Assembly: GCA_963836755.1 (NCBI GenBank)
Contig: CAWIKF010000001.1
Span: forward strand, 32,001-96,000
DNA from: an uncultured Verrucomicrobiae bacterium
GTDB lineage: Bacteria; Verrucomicrobiota; Verrucomicrobiia; Chthoniobacterales; Chthoniobacteraceae
Reading direction: 5' to 3'
Length of the DNA stretch: 64,000 nucleotides
Positions 25,385 to 31,983 of the stretch are shown here, piece by piece. Below the pieces are notes generated by a model. The model had not been told where the DNA came from, searched no databases, and worked only from the letters and a program-made list of their open reading frames with translations. A program made the position numbers and the translations under genes. Within the stretch, counting starts at the first letter, position 1. Each line of letters opens with the position of its first letter.

Positions 25385-26560
25385 TCAGCGCGCCTGCGTC
25401 TCCTCAATCAATTTACGGAACTCGCCGAAAAAGTAGTGCGCGTCGTGCGGGCCGGGCGCGGCCTCGGGATGATATTGCACGCTGAAAACCGGATGCTCGC
25501 GATGCCGCATTCCCTCGACCGTCCCGTCGTTGAGATTGATGTGCGACACCTCCACATTCGCCGGCAGCGAATCGGGATCGACCGCGAACCCGTGATTCTG
25601 CGCAGTGATCGCGACCTGTCCCGTTTTCAAATCCTGCACCGGCTGGTTGCCGCCGTGATGGCCGAACTTCAGCTTGAAAGTTTTTCCGCCAAACGCGTAG
25701 CCGAGGATTTGATGGCCGAGACAAATGCCGAAAATCGGCGTCCGCCCGATCAGCTCGCGCAAAGTTGCATGCGCGTAGCCGAGCGCCGCCGGATCGCCCG
25801 GGCCATTCGACAAAAACACGCCGTCGGGTTTCATCGCCAGCACATCGCTAGCGGATGTTTTCGCCGGCACCACGCGCACCTTGAATCCCTGCTGCCGCAG
25901 ATTGCGCAAAATGTTGTGCTTGATGCCGAAATCATACGCGACGATCTCGTGCGTAACCGGCGGCAACTTTTCAAAACTTTCGCCGTTGTCGCCGATCTCG
26001 ATTTTCGAGCTGTCGCCTTTGACGATCGTCCAATTGCGCGAAAGTTTGTCCTCCGGGTCCCAATCATAAGCCGCGCTCGCCGTCACCTCGCCGACGAAAT
26101 CCATGCCGACCATCCCCTCGCCTTGCCGCGCGCGGGCGACAGCTTCGTCCGGCGAAATGTCGTCAGTTGTCAAACACGCTTTCATCGCTCCCTTCTCGCG
26201 CAAATGCCGCGTGAGCGCGCGCGTGTCCACGCCCTGAATGCCGGCGACGTTCCACTTTTTAAAATAATCATCGAGCGACATCTGCGAGCGCCAATTGCTC
26301 GGGATCGCGCTCAGCTCCTCGATTACAAACCCTCGCACATGCGGCGCGGCGCTCTCGGCGTCGAGCGCATTCACGCCGTAATTTCCGATCAGCGGATACG
26401 TCATCGCCACGATCTGGCCGCGATACGACGGATCGGTGAGCACCTCCTGATAACCCGTCATCGAAGTGTTAAACACCATCTCGCCGAGCGCTGTGCCGGC
26501 TGTGCCAAAGGATTCGCCGGTAAAAGTGCGGCCGTCTTCGAGTGCTAAAATCGCGCGCAT
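25385..26560 (-). CDS. carA: Carbamoyl-phosphate synthase small subunit
   Basis: [35 protein letters not shown]. Confidence 0.97.
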
Positions 26561-26594
26561 GGCGACGCCCACTTTCGCGAGCGCGCGTTCGTTT

Positions 26595-27000
26595 TCAAAT
26601 CAATTTCCGTCGAGAATTTTTTTCGCAAGCCGCGAGCGCTTCGGGAAGTTTTGCCGCGTCCTTGCCGCCGCCGCGCGCGCTGTCCGGTTTGCCGCCGCCT
26701 TTGCCGCCGACGATCGGCGCGATCTGCTGGATGATTTTTCCTGCGGAAAACTTTGCGGTGAAATCCGACGAAACGCTCGCGACGAGTCCCACGCTGTGGC
26801 CAGGGTCACGAGACCCCGGCTACAACGACCACGCCTTTGAAAGCCGTGCGACTGTCAGCGCATCGGCAATCGTCTGCAACATCTTCGCCGCTCGCGCCTT
26901 GATTTCGCGATGATCGCCGGCGTGCCGTTGACCGTCGCCGATGATTTCGCGATCAAAGTTTTCGCGCGCCCCGCGGCTTCGCGCTTCTGCGCGGCGCGTT
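26595..27000 (-). other. alaS: C-terminal (C-Ala/DHHA1) part of alaS, split across several reading frames
   Basis: Fragments [34 protein letters not shown] and VGLVASVS...[20 protein letters not shown] lie in successive different frames. Confidence 0.85.
26795..26824 (-). repeat. GTAG-type REP-like hairpin inside the alaS DHHA1 region
   Basis: Minus strand TGTAGCCGGGGTC-TCGT-GACCCTGGCCACA: 13-bp imperfect stem beginning with GTAG. Confidence 0.6.
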
Positions 27001-30000
27001 GAGCGCTTTCTCCAAATCTTTTTGCTGCGCGAGCATCGCATCGAGTTTCTTTTCGATCTCGCCCACCGGCGCGTTGAGCTTCGCGGCAAAGTTTTTCAAA
27101 CGCTCGCTGTCCGCTGCCGCAAAATCGTAGGCATTCAAACCCGCAACCGCCTCGATGCGCCGCACACCCGCCGCGATCGCCGCCTCGCTCACGATTTTGA
27201 AAAGCCCGATCTCGCCCGTGGCGCGCGTGTGCGTGCCGGCGCAGAGCTCCATGCTGTATCCATCGAGCTTCGCGGGCGATCCGCCGATCTGCACCACGCG
27301 CACAACGTCCCCATATTTGTCGCCGAAAAATTGCATCACATCCGGCCGGCCCTTGATCTCGGCGAACGGCACTTCCGTCCATGCCACGCCCGCATTCTCC
27401 ACGATTTTTTCGTTCACCAACTTTTCCATATCGCGCACCTGCGCGGGCGTGAGCGCGGGACTGTTGAAATCAAACGTCAGCTTCTCCGGCCCGACGGACG
27501 ATCCCTTCTGCGTCGCGTCTTTGCTCACCACTTCATGCAGCGCCCAATGCAAAAGATGCGTCACCGTGTGATGCCGCTGGATCGCCGCGCGCCGCGCCGC
27601 ATCGAACTCCACCGTCACATGCTCGCCCGGGCTCGGCGCGTCGCCGCCCTCGATGAAATGCAGCCACGTCGCGCCGCTCTTCTGCGTATTCACGATGCGC
27701 CAAAGTTTCCCCGCGCCCGTCAATTCGCCCGTGTCGCCGACCTGCCCGCCCATCTCCGCGTAGCACACGGAATTATTGAGCACGACCGCCGTCTTCTCCT
27801 TCAGCGCGACCACTTCCTGCACATCGGCGCCGGTGTGATTGTGATCATAGCCAAGAAAATGCGTCGGCTCCTTCGTCTCGATCTGCGAAAGCTCGATCAC
27901 CTGTTTCTTCTGCGCCGCGCGGGCGCGAGAGCGCTGCTCTTCCATCAACTTTTCAAAACCAGCCGTGTCCACGGAAAGCCCGCGCTCGCGAGCCATTAGT
28001 TCCGTGAGGTCGAGCGGAAAGCCCTGTTCATCATAAAGGCGAAAAGCAAACGCGCCCGAGATCACGCGGTCCGTCGCATCGGGAGCGGGCGCATCGGGAG
28101 CGCACGCTTCCAGCGTGCTGTGCTTCGCATCCTGCGGAGCACCTCCGGCAGATCCCGCCGCCCGATCACACCAAGTCCACAACCACGGATAATCCTGACC
28201 CGCCTCGACCGCGCTTTCCGCATTCCCGCAAATGTAAAAAAACTTTTCCTCCACTTCTTCGTCACTGCGCATCAATCGATCATGCGATTCCTTTTCCCAA
28301 ACCGGCGTCCCGCGGTTTCCTTCCAGTTGATTGATCTCGTTTGCCGTGAACGATTTTATGGAATGCGTCAGCTCCGTGAGATTCCAAAAGACCGGCGGGG
28401 TGTCCATATCCGTCGGTTTTATCCACGGCTGCAACAGCACATGGACATGGTCGGGCATGACCACGGCCGCGAACAGATCGTAGCGGATTTGGTCAAAGTG
28501 CAGCAGCGCCTTCAGCACGATATCGCGGGCCGCAGGCGTGAGGATGCGGCGCTGGTGCGTGGTGAAAGTGATATGGTAGATGCCGTGCGGACGCTCGTAG
28601 TGGGGGAGGTTGCGGCGTGAAAAGCGGGCGCCGGGGGCGCGGAGTCTGGTTTGGGTGGTGGGCGTGGGGATGGCATCCGGCAGGATGCCGGATGCGGCAC
28701 GCTGGAAGCGTGCGCTCCCGGTCGCATCCCCGGTCGGACGCTGCGGGAGCGGATCCGTCGGGAGCGCACCCATCTTGGGTGCATCAGCCGGCATCCTGCC
28801 GGCGTCTCCGCTTACCCGCCCAACCTCGCGCTCAAAAAGCTCGATCCCCTTATCCAGCGTCCGATTAAACGCCTCCTCCTCGCGCTTCAGAACTTCCTCA
28901 ATCTGCTTTTGCTTCCCGCGGATCTCGGGGAAGACGTCGCCTATCGTGCGGGCGAGGACGGCGACGAGTTTGTAGAAAAACGGCTCGTGGAAGCCGAGCG
29001 TGCGGCCGTAGCGGACGGCGCGGCGCAGGATGCGGCGCAGGACGTAGTTGCGGTCGGTGTTGCCGGGCTGGATGCCGTCGGCTATCGCAAAACTGAGAGT
29101 GCGGATGTGGTCGGCGATCACGCGAAAGGCGATGTCGAGAGCGATTTGATCGGGAGATACACTGGAAGTCGCATTCTCAGACCCGGTTTTAGGATTCTCA
29201 ACATCCGAACGGGAAACGTCTCTTTGGGGTCGGGAAACGTCTCTTTGGGCTTCGGAAACGTCTCTTTGGGCTTTGGAAACGTCGGCACGGGGTCCGGAAA
29301 CGTCGGTTTGCGGGTGGGAAACGTCTCCTTGGGGTTGGGAAACGTCTGCTTGGGGTTCGGAAACGTCCCGATGCGCTGGAGAAACGTCCGCTTGGGGGTT
29401 GGAAATGCCTTTTTGCCCTGTAGAAACGTCTTTTTCTCCTTCAGAAACCGTTTCCCGCGGGGAACCCGGCGTTTCCGGCGCAGAACCGGTTACTTCGCCT
29501 GTGCCCGGCAACGTGCTGCGGTAGGTTTTCCCGCTCATCCGCTCCAGCTCGTCGAAGATCGGGCGGAAAATGTCGGTTTCGTAGTTGGAAATCTTGGCGT
29601 TGGCGAAGTCGGTGAAGTTTCGCGTCCCCTGGATGATCGACGTCACGCGCTCGAAGCCCATGCCGGTGTCCACATGTTTCTGCGCGAGCGGGACGAATTC
29701 CGTCGGGAGCGCACCCATCTTGGGTGCATCAGCCGGCATCGTGCCGGCGTCTTCGCTTCGGCTGGAAGCCAAAGCGGGCACGCTGGAAGCGTGCGCTCCC
29801 TTTTCCCTCTGCGGCTGCGCGTTGAACTGGATGAAAACCAAATTCCAGATCTCGATGCATCGCGGGTCGCCTTTGTTCACCAAGGAGCCGCGGGTGTCGC
29901 CGGCCGGCGTCAAATCCACATGCAGCTCGCTGCACGGCCCGCACGGACCGGTATCGCCCATCATCCAAAAGTTATCTTTTTTGTTCCCATTGACGATGTG

Positions 30001-30516
30001 AACAGCCGGATCGAGCCCCGCGGCACGAAACTTTTCCGCCAAAAGATCATGCGCCTCCTGGTCGAAATCGCTCGGGTCCCCCGCGCTTTTATCCGGCGAG
30101 TAAACCGTCGCGTAAAGCCGCTCGGCGGGAAATTTCCACCGCTCGACGACCAGCTCCCACGCCCACTCGATCGCTTCCTTTTTGAAGTAATCGCCGAAGC
30201 TCCAGTTGCCGAGCATCTCGAAAAATGTGTGGTGGTAAGTATCGAGCCCGACGTCGTCGAGGTCGTTGTGCTTGCCGCCGGCGCGAATGCACTTTTGCGT
30301 GTCGGCCGCGCGCGTCGGCGAGCCTTTGATCGCGCCGCTCCACGTGTCGACGTCCGGTTTTCTTTCGCCCAAAAAAATCGGCACGAACTGGTTCATCCCC
30401 GCGTTCGTGAAAAGCAAATTCGGCGAGCCGGGCATGAGCGAGCTCGACGGCACGATCGTATGATTTTTCTCGCGGAAAAAATCGAGGAACGACTGGCGGA
30501 TTTGCGCGGAGGTCAT
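26953..30516 (-). CDS. alaS: Alanine--tRNA ligase carrying three in-frame insertions, with a frameshifted C-terminus
   Basis: LLFTNAGMNQF, HHTFFEMLGNWSFGDYFK, EIWNLVF, VDTGMGFER, RVIADHIR, GFPLDLT, YAEMGGQVGD; editing motifs HHTVTHLLH and ELCAGTH. Confidence 0.97.
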   Translation of the reverse strand: MTSAQIRQSFLDFFREKNHTIVPSSSLMPGSPNLLFTNAGMNQFVPIFLGERKPDVDTWSGAIKGSPTRAADTQKCIRAGGKHNDLDDVGLDTYHHTFFEMLGNWSFGDYFKKEAIEWAWELVVERWKFPAERLYATVYSPDKSAGDPSDFDQEAHDLLAEKFRAAGLDPAVHIVNGNKKDNFWMMGDTGPCGPCSELHVDLTPAGDTRGSLVNKGDPRCIEIWNLVFIQFNAQPQREKGAHASSVPALASSRSEDAGTMPADAPKMGALPTEFVPLAQKHVDTGMGFERVTSIIQGTRNFTDFANAKISNYETDIFRPIFDELERMSGKTYRSTLPGTGEVTGSAPETPGSPRETVSEGEKDVSTGQKGISNPQADVSPAHRDVSEPQADVSQPQGDVSHPQTDVSGPRADVSKAQRDVSEAQRDVSRPQRDVSRSDVENPKTGSENATSSVSPDQIALDIAFRVIADHIRTLSFAIADGIQPGNTDRNYVLRRILRRAVRYGRTLGFHEPFFYKLVAVLARTIGDVFPEIRGKQKQIEEVLKREEEAFNRTLDKGIELFEREVGRVSGDAGRMPADAPKMGALPTDPLPQRPTGDATGSARFQRAASGILPDAIPTPTTQTRLRAPGARFSRRNLPHYERPHGIYHITFTTHQRRILTPAARDIVLKALLHFDQIRYDLFAAVVMPDHVHVLLQPWIKPTDMDTPPVFWNLTELTHSIKSFTANEINQLEGNRGTPVWEKESHDRLMRSDEEVEEKFFYICGNAESAVEAGQDYPWLWTWCDRAAGSAGGAPQDAKHSTLEACAPDAPAPDATDRVISGAFAFRLYDEQGFPLDLTELMARERGLSVDTAGFEKLMEEQRSRARAAQKKQVIELSQIETKEPTHFLGYDHNHTGADVQEVVALKEKTAVVLNNSVCYAEMGGQVGDTGELTGAGKLWRIVNTQKSGATWLHFIEGGDAPSPGEHVTVEFDAARRAAIQRHHTVTHLLHWALHEVVSKDATQKGSSVGPEKLTFDFNSPALTPAQVRDMEKLVNEKIVENAGVAWTEVPFAEIKGRPDVMQFFGDKYGDVVRVVQIGGSPAKLDGYSMELCAGTHTRATGEIGLFKIVSEAAIAAGVRRIEAVAGLNAYDFAAADSERLKNFAAKLNAPVGEIEKKLDAMLAQQKDLEKALNAPRRSAKPRGARKL
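28096..28719 (-). mobile_element. REP-flanked RAYT/IS200-like Y1 transposase unit inserted in frame in alaS (624 bp = 208 codons)
   Basis: Perfect 23-bp inverted ends GGGAGCGCACGCTTCCAGCGTGC (28096-28118) and GCACGCTGGAAGCGTGCGCTCCC (28697-28719); internal RRNLPH, YHITFTT, VMPDHVHVLL (HUH), WEKESHDRLMR, YICGN. Confidence 0.88.
28754..28813. repeat. REP variant plus inner palindrome; 60-bp direct repeat of 29699-29758
   Basis: TCCGTCGGGAGCGCACCCATCTTGGGTGCATCAGCCGGCATC(C/G)TGCCGGCGTCT...; 2 mismatches in 60 bp, offset 945 bp, same reading frame. Confidence 0.9.
29212..29463. repeat. Coding 21-bp tandem array (12 core units, degenerate flanks about 29170-29500) inside alaS, encoding QxDVSxP/A heptads
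   Basis: (G/A)GAAAC/T cores at 29212, 29233, 29254 ... 29443 in exact 21-bp register. Confidence 0.92.
29705..29800. mobile_element. Non-autonomous REP doublet (REPIN-like), 96 bp = 32 codons, in frame in alaS
   Basis: Ends GGGAGCGCAC / GTGCGCTCCC; left hairpin GCACCCA-TCT-TGGGTGC, right hairpin GCACGCT-GGA-AGCGTGC, inner palindrome GCCGGCA-TCG-TGCCGGC. Confidence 0.85.
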
Positions 30517-30555
30517 GAAAAAAGGAGGCGAATCTACGCCAGCGCGCGCCGCGCG

Positions 30556-31983
30556 TCACGCCGCGAGTGCGTCGGCGACCATTTTCAGGTCGGCGACAAA
30601 GTGCGCGTATTCGCGCTCGCGAGCCGCCTCGTCCGGCGCGCGGAGGAGCGACGAGGGATGCACGGTGACGAGCGTTTTTTTGGAAAAGTCCGACGTCAAA
30701 AACTGCCCGCGATCCTTCGTCACGCGGATCGCCGGCCCGAGCACCGCGCCCGCCGCCGTCGCGCCGAGGCAGACGAGAATCTCCGGCTGGATGATGCGCA
30801 TCTCGGCCTCGAGCCACGGCTTGCACGCGGCGATCTCACGCGCGCCAGGCTTTTTGTGCAGACGCCGTTTTCCGCGCGGCTCCCACTTGAAATGTTTGAC
30901 GGCATTCGTCACGTAAACCGCCGTCCGATCCACGCCCGCCTCGACCAGCGCGCGGTCGAGCAGCTTCCCCGCCGGGCCGATGAACGGCCTGCCCGCGAGG
31001 TCTTCCTGGTCGCCCGGCTGCTCGCCGACGAAGACGACTTTCGCGCCGGGCGGCCCTTCGCCGAAAACCGTTTGCGTCCCGTTTTTCCAAAGCGGACAGG
31101 CGCGGCAATCCTTCGATGCGGCGCGAACTTTTTCCAGGCTCGTGGTGTTCGGCACCGGCGCGGGCGCAAAGTTTTCCGCGCTCTCGTCGACGTCCGTTTT
31201 ACTTTTGCGAATCATTTTTTCCATTCGCCGGGGCGCTTCACTCAGCAACGCTGGGATCAGCGCCGCCTCGGGCAAATTCTTCCAATACTTTTTCGGCATC
31301 TCCGCCTGCATCGCGTGCACTTTCACGCGCGCGGGATTGAAAATATTCGCGTAATACGTGCGCCACATTTCCTCCATCTCGTCATCGCGCGGCGCGGCGG
31401 CTTTGGTCACGCCAGCGCTGATGGCAAGCCGCTCGCCGTCCCAATGCGCGCAGCGGTCGGGCGTCAAAATCGCCCAGCGCATGTTCGCAAAACGATCGAC
31501 GAAAAATTTCGCGTTCGCCTCGACGATGTGATGCGACGGCTCGAACCACGCGACGTAAAAAGTTTCGCCGTTTTCCTCCGCGCGCACTTCGCGAAAGCGG
31601 ACGAAGGCGCGCATTTTATGGATGTCGTGCCGCACGGACTTTTCCATCTCGGCCAGCTCGCGCACATCGGCATCGACGGCGATGTCGAGGAGCTTCGGCT
31701 CGCCGTGCGTGAGCCGCCAGAGCACGCGATAAAGCAGCGCCCATCGGCGCTCGTCGCGATGCAGCGCAACGGTCTTTGCGAGTTTGAAAAAAGTTTTTGG
31801 CACCAGAAACCTCGCACCATTTTTCTGCGCCGGCTCCTCTGCTTCGTCGAATAAATCAAGTGCCGGCTGCTCCGCGGTCAGTTCCTGCCAATGAACCGTG
31901 TTCGGCTCCAGGCCTTGATTCAGCGCCGATCGCGCCGCGCGCTGCCAGCCGGCAAAAGTCGGCGCGAAGGTGATCTGTTTCAC
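30556..31983 (-). CDS. DUF4130 domain fused to UdgX-family uracil-DNA-binding protein
   Basis: VRHDIHKMRAFVRF, WFEPSHHIVE, W..YY..IFNPAR, MPKKYWKNLPE (DUF4130); CRACPL, GEQPGDQED, KRRLHKKP, HPSSLLR (UdgX). GTG start at 31983 overlaps the radical SAM stop. Confidence 0.9.
   Translation of the reverse strand: MKQITFAPTFAGWQRAARSALNQGLEPNTVHWQELTAEQPALDLFDEAEEPAQKNGARFLVPKTFFKLAKTVALHRDERRWALLYRVLWRLTHGEPKLLDIAVDADVRELAEMEKSVRHDIHKMRAFVRFREVRAEENGETFYVAWFEPSHHIVEANAKFFVDRFANMRWAILTPDRCAHWDGERLAISAGVTKAAAPRDDEMEEMWRTYYANIFNPARVKVHAMQAEMPKKYWKNLPEAALIPALLSEAPRRMEKMIRKSKTDVDESAENFAPAPVPNTTSLEKVRAASKDCRACPLWKNGTQTVFGEGPPGAKVVFVGEQPGDQEDLAGRPFIGPAGKLLDRALVEAGVDRTAVYVTNAVKHFKWEPRGKRRLHKKPGAREIAACKPWLEAEMRIIQPEILVCLGATAAGAVLGPAIRVTKDRGQFLTSDFSKKTLVTVHPSSLLRAPDEAAREREYAHFVADLKMVADALAA

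Follow-up and report, generated by a model that had tools for sequence, protein, structure and literature searches.

In the 64,000-nucleotide stretch of DNA analysed here (the window), from a soil Verrucomicrobium, the gene for alanyl-tRNA synthetase (alaS) carries, in sense and in frame, a REP-associated tyrosine transposase (RAYT) together with its REP hairpins. We consider it probable that this is an in-frame REPtron, a mobile element kept in essential genes as an insert that is translated but not spliced out. REPs and RAYTs are familiar from the textbooks as bacterial repeats; the purpose of RAYTs and their present mobility are debated questions, and the current view is that they are immobile, domesticated genes. 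If our reading is true, whole RAYT cassettes are mobile, contrary to that view, and a transposase is made only within an essential enzyme, with its catalytic residues under selection. It would also be a third way of living inside an essential gene: introns and inteins splice, while this cassette would not, a "non-splicing intein" strategy powered by an HUH single-strand transposase.

A RAYT cassette in the alaS gene

The features on which the argument rests are the following.

26953..30516, minus strand: alaS as assembled, 1187 amino acids, one open frame in the ORF list
26595..27000, minus strand: actual 3' end of alaS with the C-Ala/DHHA1 part, not in frame with the rest as assembled
29704..29800, no strand assigned: insert 1, an in-frame REP doublet with tags outward (REP-D and REP-E), from repeat search and folds
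29190..29462, minus strand: insert 2, an in-frame 21-nt tandem repeat, from repeat search and TRF
28063..28821, minus strand: insert 3, whole, about codons 566-818, by comparison with the short-loop relatives G034 and G010
28759..28807, plus strand: REP-C, a single REP whose stem is of a second type, with two in-frame ATG codons inside, from repeat search
28672..28720, minus strand: REP-B, the cassette's 5' REP and perfect 24-bp inverted partner of REP-A, from repeat search
28168..28632, minus strand: RAYT (HUH/Y1) domain, codons 629-783
28441-28449, minus strand: HVH motif of the RAYT
28234-28236, minus strand: catalytic Tyr of the RAYT
28095..28143, plus strand: REP-A, the cassette's 3' REP in the sense of the gene, a GGGAGCGC tag followed by two hairpins, from repeat search
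28069..28102, no strand assigned: 15-nt direct duplication at the outer edge of REP-A, from repeat search

The alaS product has the Pfam domains tRNA-synt_2c (E 1.6e-164) and tRNA_SAD. The original prediction had named a second, intact alaS as the case in which this copy could be decaying, and a PF01411 search of the source genome (96% complete) finds the 26953-30516 locus only. As assembled, the final approximately 115 codons are off-frame in several places (three-frame translations), most likely owing to assembly errors, indels between about 26800 and 27000. At the 3' end of alaS, 11 indels separate a short-read contig (run X1, record 2) from the window; once the indels listed for the contig are applied, a single frame of 1302-1304 amino acids results, and the corrected tail can be aligned with the whole of the last 171 residues of the AlaRS of G033 (score 546 vs 225 uncorrected). 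The remaining 3561 nt of the gene are open. Because the genome has one alaS and read-supported indels restore its frame, the host gene is both needed and whole.

This gene holds three in-frame inserts. The REP doublet of insert 1 corresponds to AlaRS residues 237-272, which are unmatched in relatives; REP-D is of the REP-C type and REP-E of the REP-A/B type, and they fold as DNA with z-scores of -4.43 and -3.70 (doublet: -5.41). A REP doublet of the same kind is also present in ispG. Insert 2 consists of about 9-13 units, translated as DVSxPQx heptads, and has no counterpart in relatives. Insert 3 is the cassette. In an alignment with human AlaRS (4XEM) its site falls at the loop of residues about 416-424; this loop joins two helices close to the end of the N-terminal part that serves catalysis and tRNA recognition. 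As predicted, AlaRS reads without a break through the extra residues between LDKGIELFE and ISGAFAFRLYD; there are about 250 of them, and they are missing in the short-loop G034 and G010.

The region 28063-28821 is a complete REPtron, with a 5' REP, a RAYT coding sequence and a 3' REP, plus one extra REP, and neither hairpin end interrupts the reading frame. The inverted pair described earlier as 23 bp is indeed perfect but measures 24 bp (28095-28118 / 28697-28720). The inverted REPs bracket the RAYT as claimed; the insert, however, exceeds the proposed 624-bp unit and includes a third REP of a second type. The equation of 624 bp with 208 codons has no special meaning, the enclosed length being 626 or 624 bp according to the counting point. 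Among 41 related cassettes, the hairpin-to-hairpin lengths (anchored by eye on the GGG(T/G)AG tag) cover all three residue classes modulo 3, and we reject the idea of a frame-neutral unit whose length is always a multiple of 3. Each end was said to be a hairpin with a second palindrome, and we find a single-stranded GGGAGC tag followed by two DNA hairpins in tandem. The DNA folds of REP-A (-17.2 kcal/mol, z -3.45), REP-B (-20.5 kcal/mol, z -4.79) and REP-C (z -3.97) are stable; for the cassette ends (z -3.5 to -4.8), 0 of 200 shuffles fold as well. One copy of the 15-nt duplication at the edge of REP-A is missing, in frame, in two short-read contigs (deletion at 28075; X2 record 12 and X3 record 21). 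The genome has 11 REP units of the cassette's architecture, five of them inside alaS, with three doublets elsewhere, and since there are so few, current activity of the cassette in this genome may be low or nil.

The motifs quoted in the original prediction (RRNLPH, YHITFTT, VMPDHVH, WEKESHDRLMR, YICGN) are all present, and profile searches bear out the assignment to the RAYT/Y1 family. The domain matches NCBIfam NF047646 (REP_Tyr_transpos) at E 6e-19 over profile positions 4-145 of 146, with 68.4 bits, under the 80-bit cut-off of that profile, and Pfam Y1_Tnp (PF01797) with 21.1 bits, just under its cut-off of 23 bits; these scores point to a divergent subfamily and not an equivalog. A profile search of the PDB returns 4ER8 first (E 7.7e-5). 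The AF2 model of the domain (pLDDT 85.8, pTM 0.81) has 4ER8_A as its top Foldseek match (E 6.4e-6, prob 1.0, TM 0.58), followed at ranks 2-29 by IS200, ISDra2 and IS608 transposases. Membership of IS200/IS605 itself is rejected: NF033573 (TnpA_IS200) scores 23.9 bits vs a 55-bit cut-off, and the domain is the only copy in the source genome. In an 18-row alignment, H65 of the HUH motif (MPDHVHVLL) is invariant and H67 nearly so, as are, respectively, Y136 and N140 in the Y-x3-N-P context of the C-terminal helix. HxH is found in 40/40 embedded RAYT copies and NP after the catalytic Tyr in 38; the NA noted earlier in place of NP is genuine and is common to the window copy and L072, the other two. 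Neither the 72,556 plasmids nor the 50,697 phage records searched with the domain by tblastn gave a match at E <= 1e-10.

Recurrence and movement among host genes

A RAYT profile was searched against 301 genomes of the order, giving 84 matches at E <= 3.1e-58; with the source genome and the unpublished G198 set aside, 82 close homologues were counted. Of these, 77 lie in open frames of at least 646 amino acids and five in frames of 219-274 amino acids. The suggested survey of other housekeeping genes for in-frame RAYT fusions was fruitful, 39 of the 42 homologues examined being embedded. By Pfam, the hosts of the 42 close copies are RecG (16), AlaRS (12), ThrRS (8), PriA (1), MetH (1) and CarB (1), and three are free-standing. 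The rows left out were L021 (degenerate, HUH region out of frame), L049, L062 and L064 (same places as L011, L005 and L019), L023 (a near-copy of L022) and L026, L029 and L031 (no HUH pattern found by the script). The insertion loop is constant for each host (AlaRS 13/13, ThrRS 8/8, RecG 16/16). In the global protein database, 267 proteins of 652-2078 amino acids match the RAYT domain at E <= 1e-10, mostly AlaRS, with MetH, RecG, ThrRS and pyruvate formate-lyase also among them.

An alignment of alaS from relatives had been proposed as a way to find empty alleles. G010 and G034 do have the short loop; the same-genus G001 and G002 lack the RAYT but are not clean empty sites, because unrelated inserts of 55-75 amino acids occupy the cassette loop of their AlaRS.

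On the RAYT tree the host labels require 16 changes, where the minimum is 7. Several supported sister pairs cross hosts (AlaRS and CarB, 99/92; ThrRS and PriA, 99/88; free-standing and RecG, 99/92), and an AU test, run after the tree had been seen, rejects a single AlaRS clade (delta lnL 102, p-AU 7e-8). The REP peptide type tracks the RAYT lineage and not the host, and cognate REP ends are kept with the cassette in every host. Movement of the whole cassette has reached at least six host genes, and free-standing forms exist as well. The sister of the window RAYT is in G095, from another family (support 100/97, 77% identity), and the window host gene groups with that of the RAYT-less same-genus G001. 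These sequence relationships indicate that the same loops have been entered more than once. What looks like repeated entry into one loop could also stem from lineages exchanging alaS segments; the alaS tree is itself at odds with the taxonomy. The RAYT domain is under purifying selection, with dN/dS of 0.098 (G000-L068), 0.149 and 0.187 in the pairs with usable dS (dS is near saturation in several pairs).

Proposed expression of the embedded transposase and alternative explanations

In the mechanism that we propose, transcription and translation of alaS would yield an AlaRS bearing a folded HUH/Y1 domain on REP-encoded, probably disordered linkers. Produced as part of AlaRS, the transposase would need no promoter, start codon or stop codon of its own. 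The RAYT domain would still bind and cut REP hairpins in single-stranded DNA, and this cutting, along the single-strand pathway of IS200/IS605-type enzymes, would mobilise REP doublets and, on rare occasions, the complete cassette. Residence in an essential gene would shield the cassette from loss, because only a precise in-frame loss would be viable. Either only insertions in permissive loops survive selection or, alternatively, the element targets those loops. We infer the AlaRS-RAYT fusion protein and RAYT catalysis from sequence; the original prediction of a frame-preserving element that would borrow the expression of alaS is supported, none of the refuting conditions that it named having been borne out and 39 of the 42 homologues being embedded. 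The AF2 model of the whole AlaRS (17-row alignment; mean pLDDT 54.5, pTM 0.35) is of too low quality for the domain to be positioned on AlaRS. Its pLDDT is below 50 in residues 227-287, 334-452, 571-640 and 789-815 (inserts and linkers) and 58-88 in residues 641-788; host residues 18-110 are also below 50, and the model gives a weak hint that the REP-encoded linkers are disordered.

Might the RAYT be a separate product, started internally at an ATG of REP-C or at a GTG or TTG, with read-through merely keeping alaS intact? The claim that the unit has no start holds for the inverted-repeat unit itself, inside which there is no ATG, but not for the whole insert, where the two in-frame ATG codons of REP-C lie 47 and 54 codons ahead of the domain. 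There is also a promoter-like site on the minus strand at 29201-29173. Against this, the 60 codons ahead of the domain are free of ATG in 27 of the 40 embedded copies, and where ATGs are present they are mostly host residues. The promoter scan is near chance (two sites vs 0.6 expected; 9 of 12 matches), and we take its sites as background. Since there is no stop, an internally started protein would continue into the C-terminal half of AlaRS; in the free-standing siblings, too, the frame is open through the cassette ends, because the start precedes the 5' REP and the stop lies beyond the 3' REP. We regard a separate product as improbable. Removal of the cassette as RNA or protein, leaving a mature AlaRS without the insert, would be suggested only by analogy with inteins and introns in essential genes, and we think it very improbable. 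Pfam at E <= 0.01 finds no Hint/intein domain in the alaS product (tRNA-synt_2c, tRNA_SAD and Y1_Tnp are the only families found), the Cys/Ser/Thr and His-Asn that inteins have are missing at the junctions (…GRV|SGD… and …DRV|ISG…), and Rfam, run over 26400-30700 at E <= 1, gives no intron, its sole match being a chance one to rpfG RNA (21.4 bits vs 75.9). The description "intein-like without intein chemistry" is supported by these results and by the in-frame position of the cassette in the relatives.

A different possibility is that the HUH/Y1 domain has been domesticated, co-opted by its hosts for a role such as single-strand nucleic-acid binding or tethering and kept for their benefit. The purifying selection, the single RAYT copy with its tiny population of 11 REPs and the fact that most hosts bind nucleic acids (AlaRS, ThrRS, ValRS, RecG, PriA) would all fit, and Bertels et al. 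2017 argue, in the accessible part of their paper (PMC5581495), for housekeeping-like behaviour of RAYTs. We nevertheless judge it unlikely: MetH, CarB and pyruvate formate-lyase are hosts too, the cassette retains cognate REP ends wherever it is located, host switches are frequent on the tree with free-standing siblings interleaved among embedded copies, and the same-genus relatives as well as G010 and G034 manage without the cassette. That the locus is a decaying relic, either an inert cassette or an alaS pseudogene, might be read from the off-frame 3' end as assembled, the change of NP to NA and the few REPs in the genome. The absence of another alaS, the frame of 1302-1304 amino acids restored by the listed indels of the short-read contig with the other 3561 nt open, the dN/dS of 0.098 vs the nearest RAYT and the intact HUH and Tyr make this highly doubtful.

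Least credible of all is an assembly chimera, in which the cassette was joined into alaS by repeat misassembly. REPs are repeated sequence and the window does have local assembly errors, but short-read metagenome contigs from three runs (27948-28190, 28012-28177, 28142-28374, 28501-28651 and 28705-28889) bridge both host-cassette junctions, as the original prediction required of the DNA reads. The contigs covering the insert differ from the window by 0-7 bases and one in-frame 15-nt indel, and a like arrangement occurs at 12 other AlaRS loci of other genomes and in the 267 database proteins. Five joints were found among the contigs of four runs, none of them spanning the cassette, in contigs that drop rare variants; the joints 29046>29648 and 29679>29819 probably come from other organisms, judging by their short sides.

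Relation to known mobile elements

The in-frame REPtron also admits a wider reading, for and against which we see equal chances: that this REPtron lineage of the Verrucomicrobiota, Chthoniobacterales-like by the names of its nearest database proteins, would be a new kind of selfish element, with an open-ended frame, unspliced and re-invading fixed loops of AlaRS, ThrRS, RecG, PriA, MetH and CarB across families. Its insertions would be a natural map of permissive loops, those of AlaRS, ThrRS and RecG tolerating an insert of approximately 250 residues. Surveys that discard "too long" proteins as fusions or annotation errors would miss embedded RAYTs, a blind spot suggested by the accessible part of PMC6006769. 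The accessible parts of the literature, including PMC3733652, PMC6006769 and PMC5581495, describe no RAYT in frame inside a host gene, and supplementary tables could list such ORFs.

Like known REPtrons (E. coli TnpA_REP, 4ER8; NF047646), the cassette has an HUH and Tyr domain in one copy per genome, flanking REP hairpins that are inverted and carry a conserved 5' tag, and REP doublets elsewhere in the genome. The tag, GGGAGCGC here and GGGTAGCGC in relatives, is the GTAG type as given in the accessible part of Di Nocera et al. 2013 (PMC3733652). Unlike them, the alaS cassette lacks its own promoter and its own start and stop codons, is embedded in an essential gene in sense and in frame and has REPs that are translated, and its RAYT scores below both curated profile cut-offs. 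The same source, as far as accessible, describes Rickettsia RPEs and intragenic GTAG/CGTC REPs as translated hairpin loops in conserved genes, including those of tRNA synthetases and repair genes, with more intragenic GTAG REPs in Opitutus terrae (Verrucomicrobia) than in any other organism of its survey. Insert 1 of alaS and the ispG doublet are of that kind. However, those elements are of 20-80 amino acids and consist of the repeat only (PMC3733652, accessible part), whereas here a transposase gene is carried and translated.

The cassette resembles IS200/IS605 elements (TnpA Y1; IS608, ISDra2) in its fold, in the subterminal hairpins at either end and in the single-strand mechanism presumed for it, but it is single copy, has no tnpB and does not disrupt its target gene. 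The likeness to inteins is one of lifestyle: a selfish element that lies in frame at conserved positions of essential proteins, which often handle nucleic acids, and that is expressed together with its host gene, recurs at the same sites across lineages and is patchy among close relatives. In contrast to inteins, the cassette has neither a Hint domain nor splicing residues and presumably stays in the mature protein, and its enzyme is a single-strand HUH transposase instead of a double-strand homing endonuclease.

The RAYT cassette and its host gene

The single open frame at 26953-30516 (minus strand, 1187 aa in the ORF list) is an alanyl-tRNA synthetase gene, alaS (Pfam tRNA-synt_2c, E 1.6e-164, and tRNA_SAD), within which Pfam also gives a weak match to Y1_Tnp. 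Counterparts in relatives cover only residues 1-236, 273-370, 450-568 and 819-1180 of this AlaRS, which means that alaS carries three in-frame inserts.

Inserts in alaS and the REP-associated tyrosine transposase (RAYT) domain
29704-29800: insert 1, REP doublet, in frame
29190-29462: insert 2, 21-nt tandem repeat, in frame
28063-28821, about codons 566-818: insert 3, RAYT cassette, in frame
28168-28632, minus strand, codons 629-783: RAYT domain

In the sense of the gene, the cassette reads host, REP-C (reverse, second stem type), REP-B, RAYT, REP-A (reverse), host. In each REP a single-stranded GGGAGC tag precedes two hairpins in tandem (stems of 7 and 7-10 bp, loops of 3 nt); the z-scores of the folds are -3.5 to -4.8, and none of 200 shuffled sequences folds equally well. 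REP-B pairs perfectly with REP-A as an inverted repeat of 24 bp (28095-28118 / 28697-28720). The original prediction, a 23-bp pair enclosing 624 bp or 208 codons, was one base short on each side, and the multiple of three has no meaning because hairpin-to-hairpin lengths of related cassettes occur in all three classes. A 15-nt direct duplication (28069-28102) lies directly against the REP-A tag, part of which it copies; it could be slippage or the footprint of cleavage and rejoining. Degenerate tag copies also lie 15-17 nt outside the tag at REP-C and at REP-D, a REP of insert 1.

Of the 11 REP units in the genome, five lie in alaS, and ispG contains one doublet in frame. This ispG (C2:1020288-1022474, locus L073, outside the window; 729-aa frame, Pfam GcpE E 4e-125) has a doublet of the same family as the alaS REPs, with compensatory stem changes, and an in-frame 21-nt repeat that encodes some 10 units of NGPTVPS. 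TRF detected 154 tandem-repeat arrays across the genome, and in 116 of them the period is 21 or a multiple of it (21: 65; 42: 36; 63: 8; 84: 7). Their unit sequence varies by locus, with a short palindrome in many; one is in frame in alaS (insert 2) and one in ispG, and arrays also adjoin REP doublets at C1:273729-273928 and C1:615883-616131. In the same-genus genome G002, the alaS loop of insert 2 contains a heptad repeat of another kind.

Assignment of the domain to the RAYTs, as originally predicted from its motifs, agrees with profile and fold searches. The domain matches NCBIfam REP_Tyr_transpos (E 6e-19, profile positions 4-145 of 146) at 68.4 bits, short of the 80-bit cut-off, and the IS200 transposase model scores 23.9 bits against a cut-off of 55. 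The best solved relative is E. coli TnpA_REP (4ER8; E 7.7e-5 with a profile of 18 homologues). An AF2 model of the domain (pLDDT 85.8, pTM 0.81) also has 4ER8 as its top Foldseek match (E 6.4e-6, probability 1.0, TM 0.58), followed by the IS200, ISDra2 and IS608 transposases. This RAYT, the only copy in the genome, has both the HVH motif and the Tyr.

Could the arrangement be a misassembly, or this alaS a decaying second copy? No second alaS turned up when the whole genome (3.18 Mb in 4 contigs, 96% complete) was searched for the family. Parts of the stretch occur in four metagenome runs from soil or permafrost, in every case as contigs, and no run is recorded as RNA. Contigs cover the host/REP-A/RAYT junction (27948-28190 and 28012-28177), the RAYT (28142-28374 and 28501-28651) and REP-B, REP-C and host (28705-28889). 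They come from three runs, bridge both junctions and have 0-7 base differences to the window. Both contigs over the 3' junction, from two of these runs, lack one copy of the 15-nt duplication, in frame. As assembled, three-frame translations spread the C-terminal C-Ala part of alaS over other frames. A short-read contig (26648-27088) has 11 indels relative to the window in this out-of-frame 3' stretch, clustered at 26800-27000. When the indels listed for this contig were applied by script, a single alaS frame of 1302-1304 aa resulted; in an alignment of its tail with a relative's AlaRS, all 171 C-terminal residues of the latter are covered (score 546, versus 225 uncorrected). Local errors of assembly, rather than decay, thus most likely explain the frameshifts, and the same indel errors may affect other genes of this assembly. 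The best-matching run may be the genome's own source sample, so the support lies in a second type of data and not in a second organism.

Recurrence in other genomes and host genes

Close homologues of the domain in 60 relatives almost all lie within very long open frames. When 301 genomes of the order were searched with a profile, 84 matches reached E <= 3.1e-58; 77 of 82 (own genome and G198, flagged as unpublished, left out) lie in open frames of 646-1522 aa and five in frames of 219-274 aa. By Pfam, the hosts of 42 close copies are RecG (16), AlaRS (12), ThrRS (8), PriA, MetH and CarB (one each), and three copies are free-standing. Members of a more distant RAYT group sit inside ValRS and an adenosine deaminase protein, and others are joined to the termini of a cation-efflux protein and of RecF. 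One of this group (L024) lies in an 896-aa frame with a Cas_NE0113-like N-terminal part and an adenosine deaminase domain. In a collection of 5.8 billion proteins, 267 of 652-2078 aa match the window's RAYT domain at E <= 1e-10, labeled Chthoniobacterales and other Verrucomicrobiota. Their hosts are mostly AlaRS, and also MetH, RecG, ThrRS and pyruvate formate-lyase; automatic names include [quoted passage not shown] (JGI) and "alanine--tRNA ligase-related protein" (NCBI).

The insertion loop is constant within each of the three host genes compared.

Insertion loops of embedded RAYTs
AlaRS, 13 of 13 copies: between LFExE… and ISGxFAFRLYD
ThrRS, 8 of 8 copies: between YYAESMFPPM and DRYYLKAMNCPHHH
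RecG, 16 of 16 copies: between LPLF and IGTHALLY

By alignment, the loop in AlaRS corresponds to about residues 416-424 of the human enzyme (4XEM), flanked by two helices close to where the N-terminal catalytic fragment ends. One RAYT-bearing ThrRS frame (L010) continues into a C-terminal HicA_toxin domain (residues 839-889 of 897), which may reflect a lost stop codon or a sequencing error.

Probable movement of the cassette

Host labels cluster in a tree built from 46 RAYT domains, yet 16 changes are needed (minimum 7). The starred branches of this tree force at least four AlaRS, three RecG and three ThrRS groups, and supported sister pairs cross hosts (AlaRS with CarB, 99/92; ThrRS with PriA, 99/88; free-standing with RecG, 99/92). 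A single AlaRS clade is rejected by an AU test run after the tree had been seen (delta lnL 102, p 7e-8). The peptides encoded by the REPs (GSARFQRA…, GRVGVPPA…, GSARGSRA…, GSARVPRV…) track RAYT lineage, not host gene, which indicates that whole REP-RAYT-REP units moved. The free-standing siblings L045 and L065 lie between other genes; their ORFs begin before the 5' REP and stop after the 3' REP, so that even there the frame is open through both ends.

The sister of the window's RAYT is that of G095, from another family (100/97, 77% identity), while its alaS groups with that of same-genus G001, which has no RAYT (92/96, 82% identity). Exchange of alaS segments between lineages is an alternative to re-invasion by the cassette, since the alaS tree (17 genomes) itself conflicts with genome taxonomy: same-genus G002 groups with genomes of family f14 (97/91), a hint that alaS, whole or in part, was exchanged horizontally. 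At the RAYT site, G001 and G002 lack a RAYT but have unrelated inserts of 55-75 aa, and G010 and G034 a short loop; such loops of AlaRS are insertion hot spots in general. A second variable loop in G001 alaS has about 80 aa with a weak Sigma70_r4 match (E 0.011, under cut-off). In four pairs (L056/L059, L009/L053, L012/L018, L050/L063) the RAYT has a higher synonymous divergence than the flanking host gene (for example 2.14 versus 0.68-0.85 and 1.73 versus 0.57-0.80; NG86, noisy at such distances), as would be expected if cassettes were replaced or mutating faster than their hosts.

Expression, function and known elements

The RAYT dN/dS is 0.098 between the window and G095 (dS 1.69, near saturation) and 0.149 (dS 0.93) and 0.187 (dS 0.77) in other pairs. 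HxH and the Tyr are kept in all 40 embedded copies, indicating that the domain is maintained as a protein. No ATG occurs in the 60 codons ahead of the domain in 27 of these 40, and the cassette contains no stop codon, intein signature or match to an intron model. The simplest reading of these sequences is that the domain would be made as part of the host enzyme. The putative transposase would cut the REPs and, by analogy with its IS200/IS605 relatives, move the cassette by their single-strand route; nesting in an essential gene would protect the cassette from loss. Present-day activity in this genome is uncertain because the REP population is tiny and the usual NP after the Tyr is NA, a change already noted in the original prediction and shared by one other of the 40 embedded copies.

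REPtrons (RAYT genes with REPs on both sides) and RAYTs are known elements. Our literature searches found no paper on a RAYT gene translated inside a host gene, and passages of Bertels et al. 2017 (PMC5581495) make no mention of fusions. In-frame REPs within genes have precedents in the RPEs of Rickettsia and in intragenic GTAG REPs; according to passages of PMC3733652, the latter are most numerous in Opitutus terrae.
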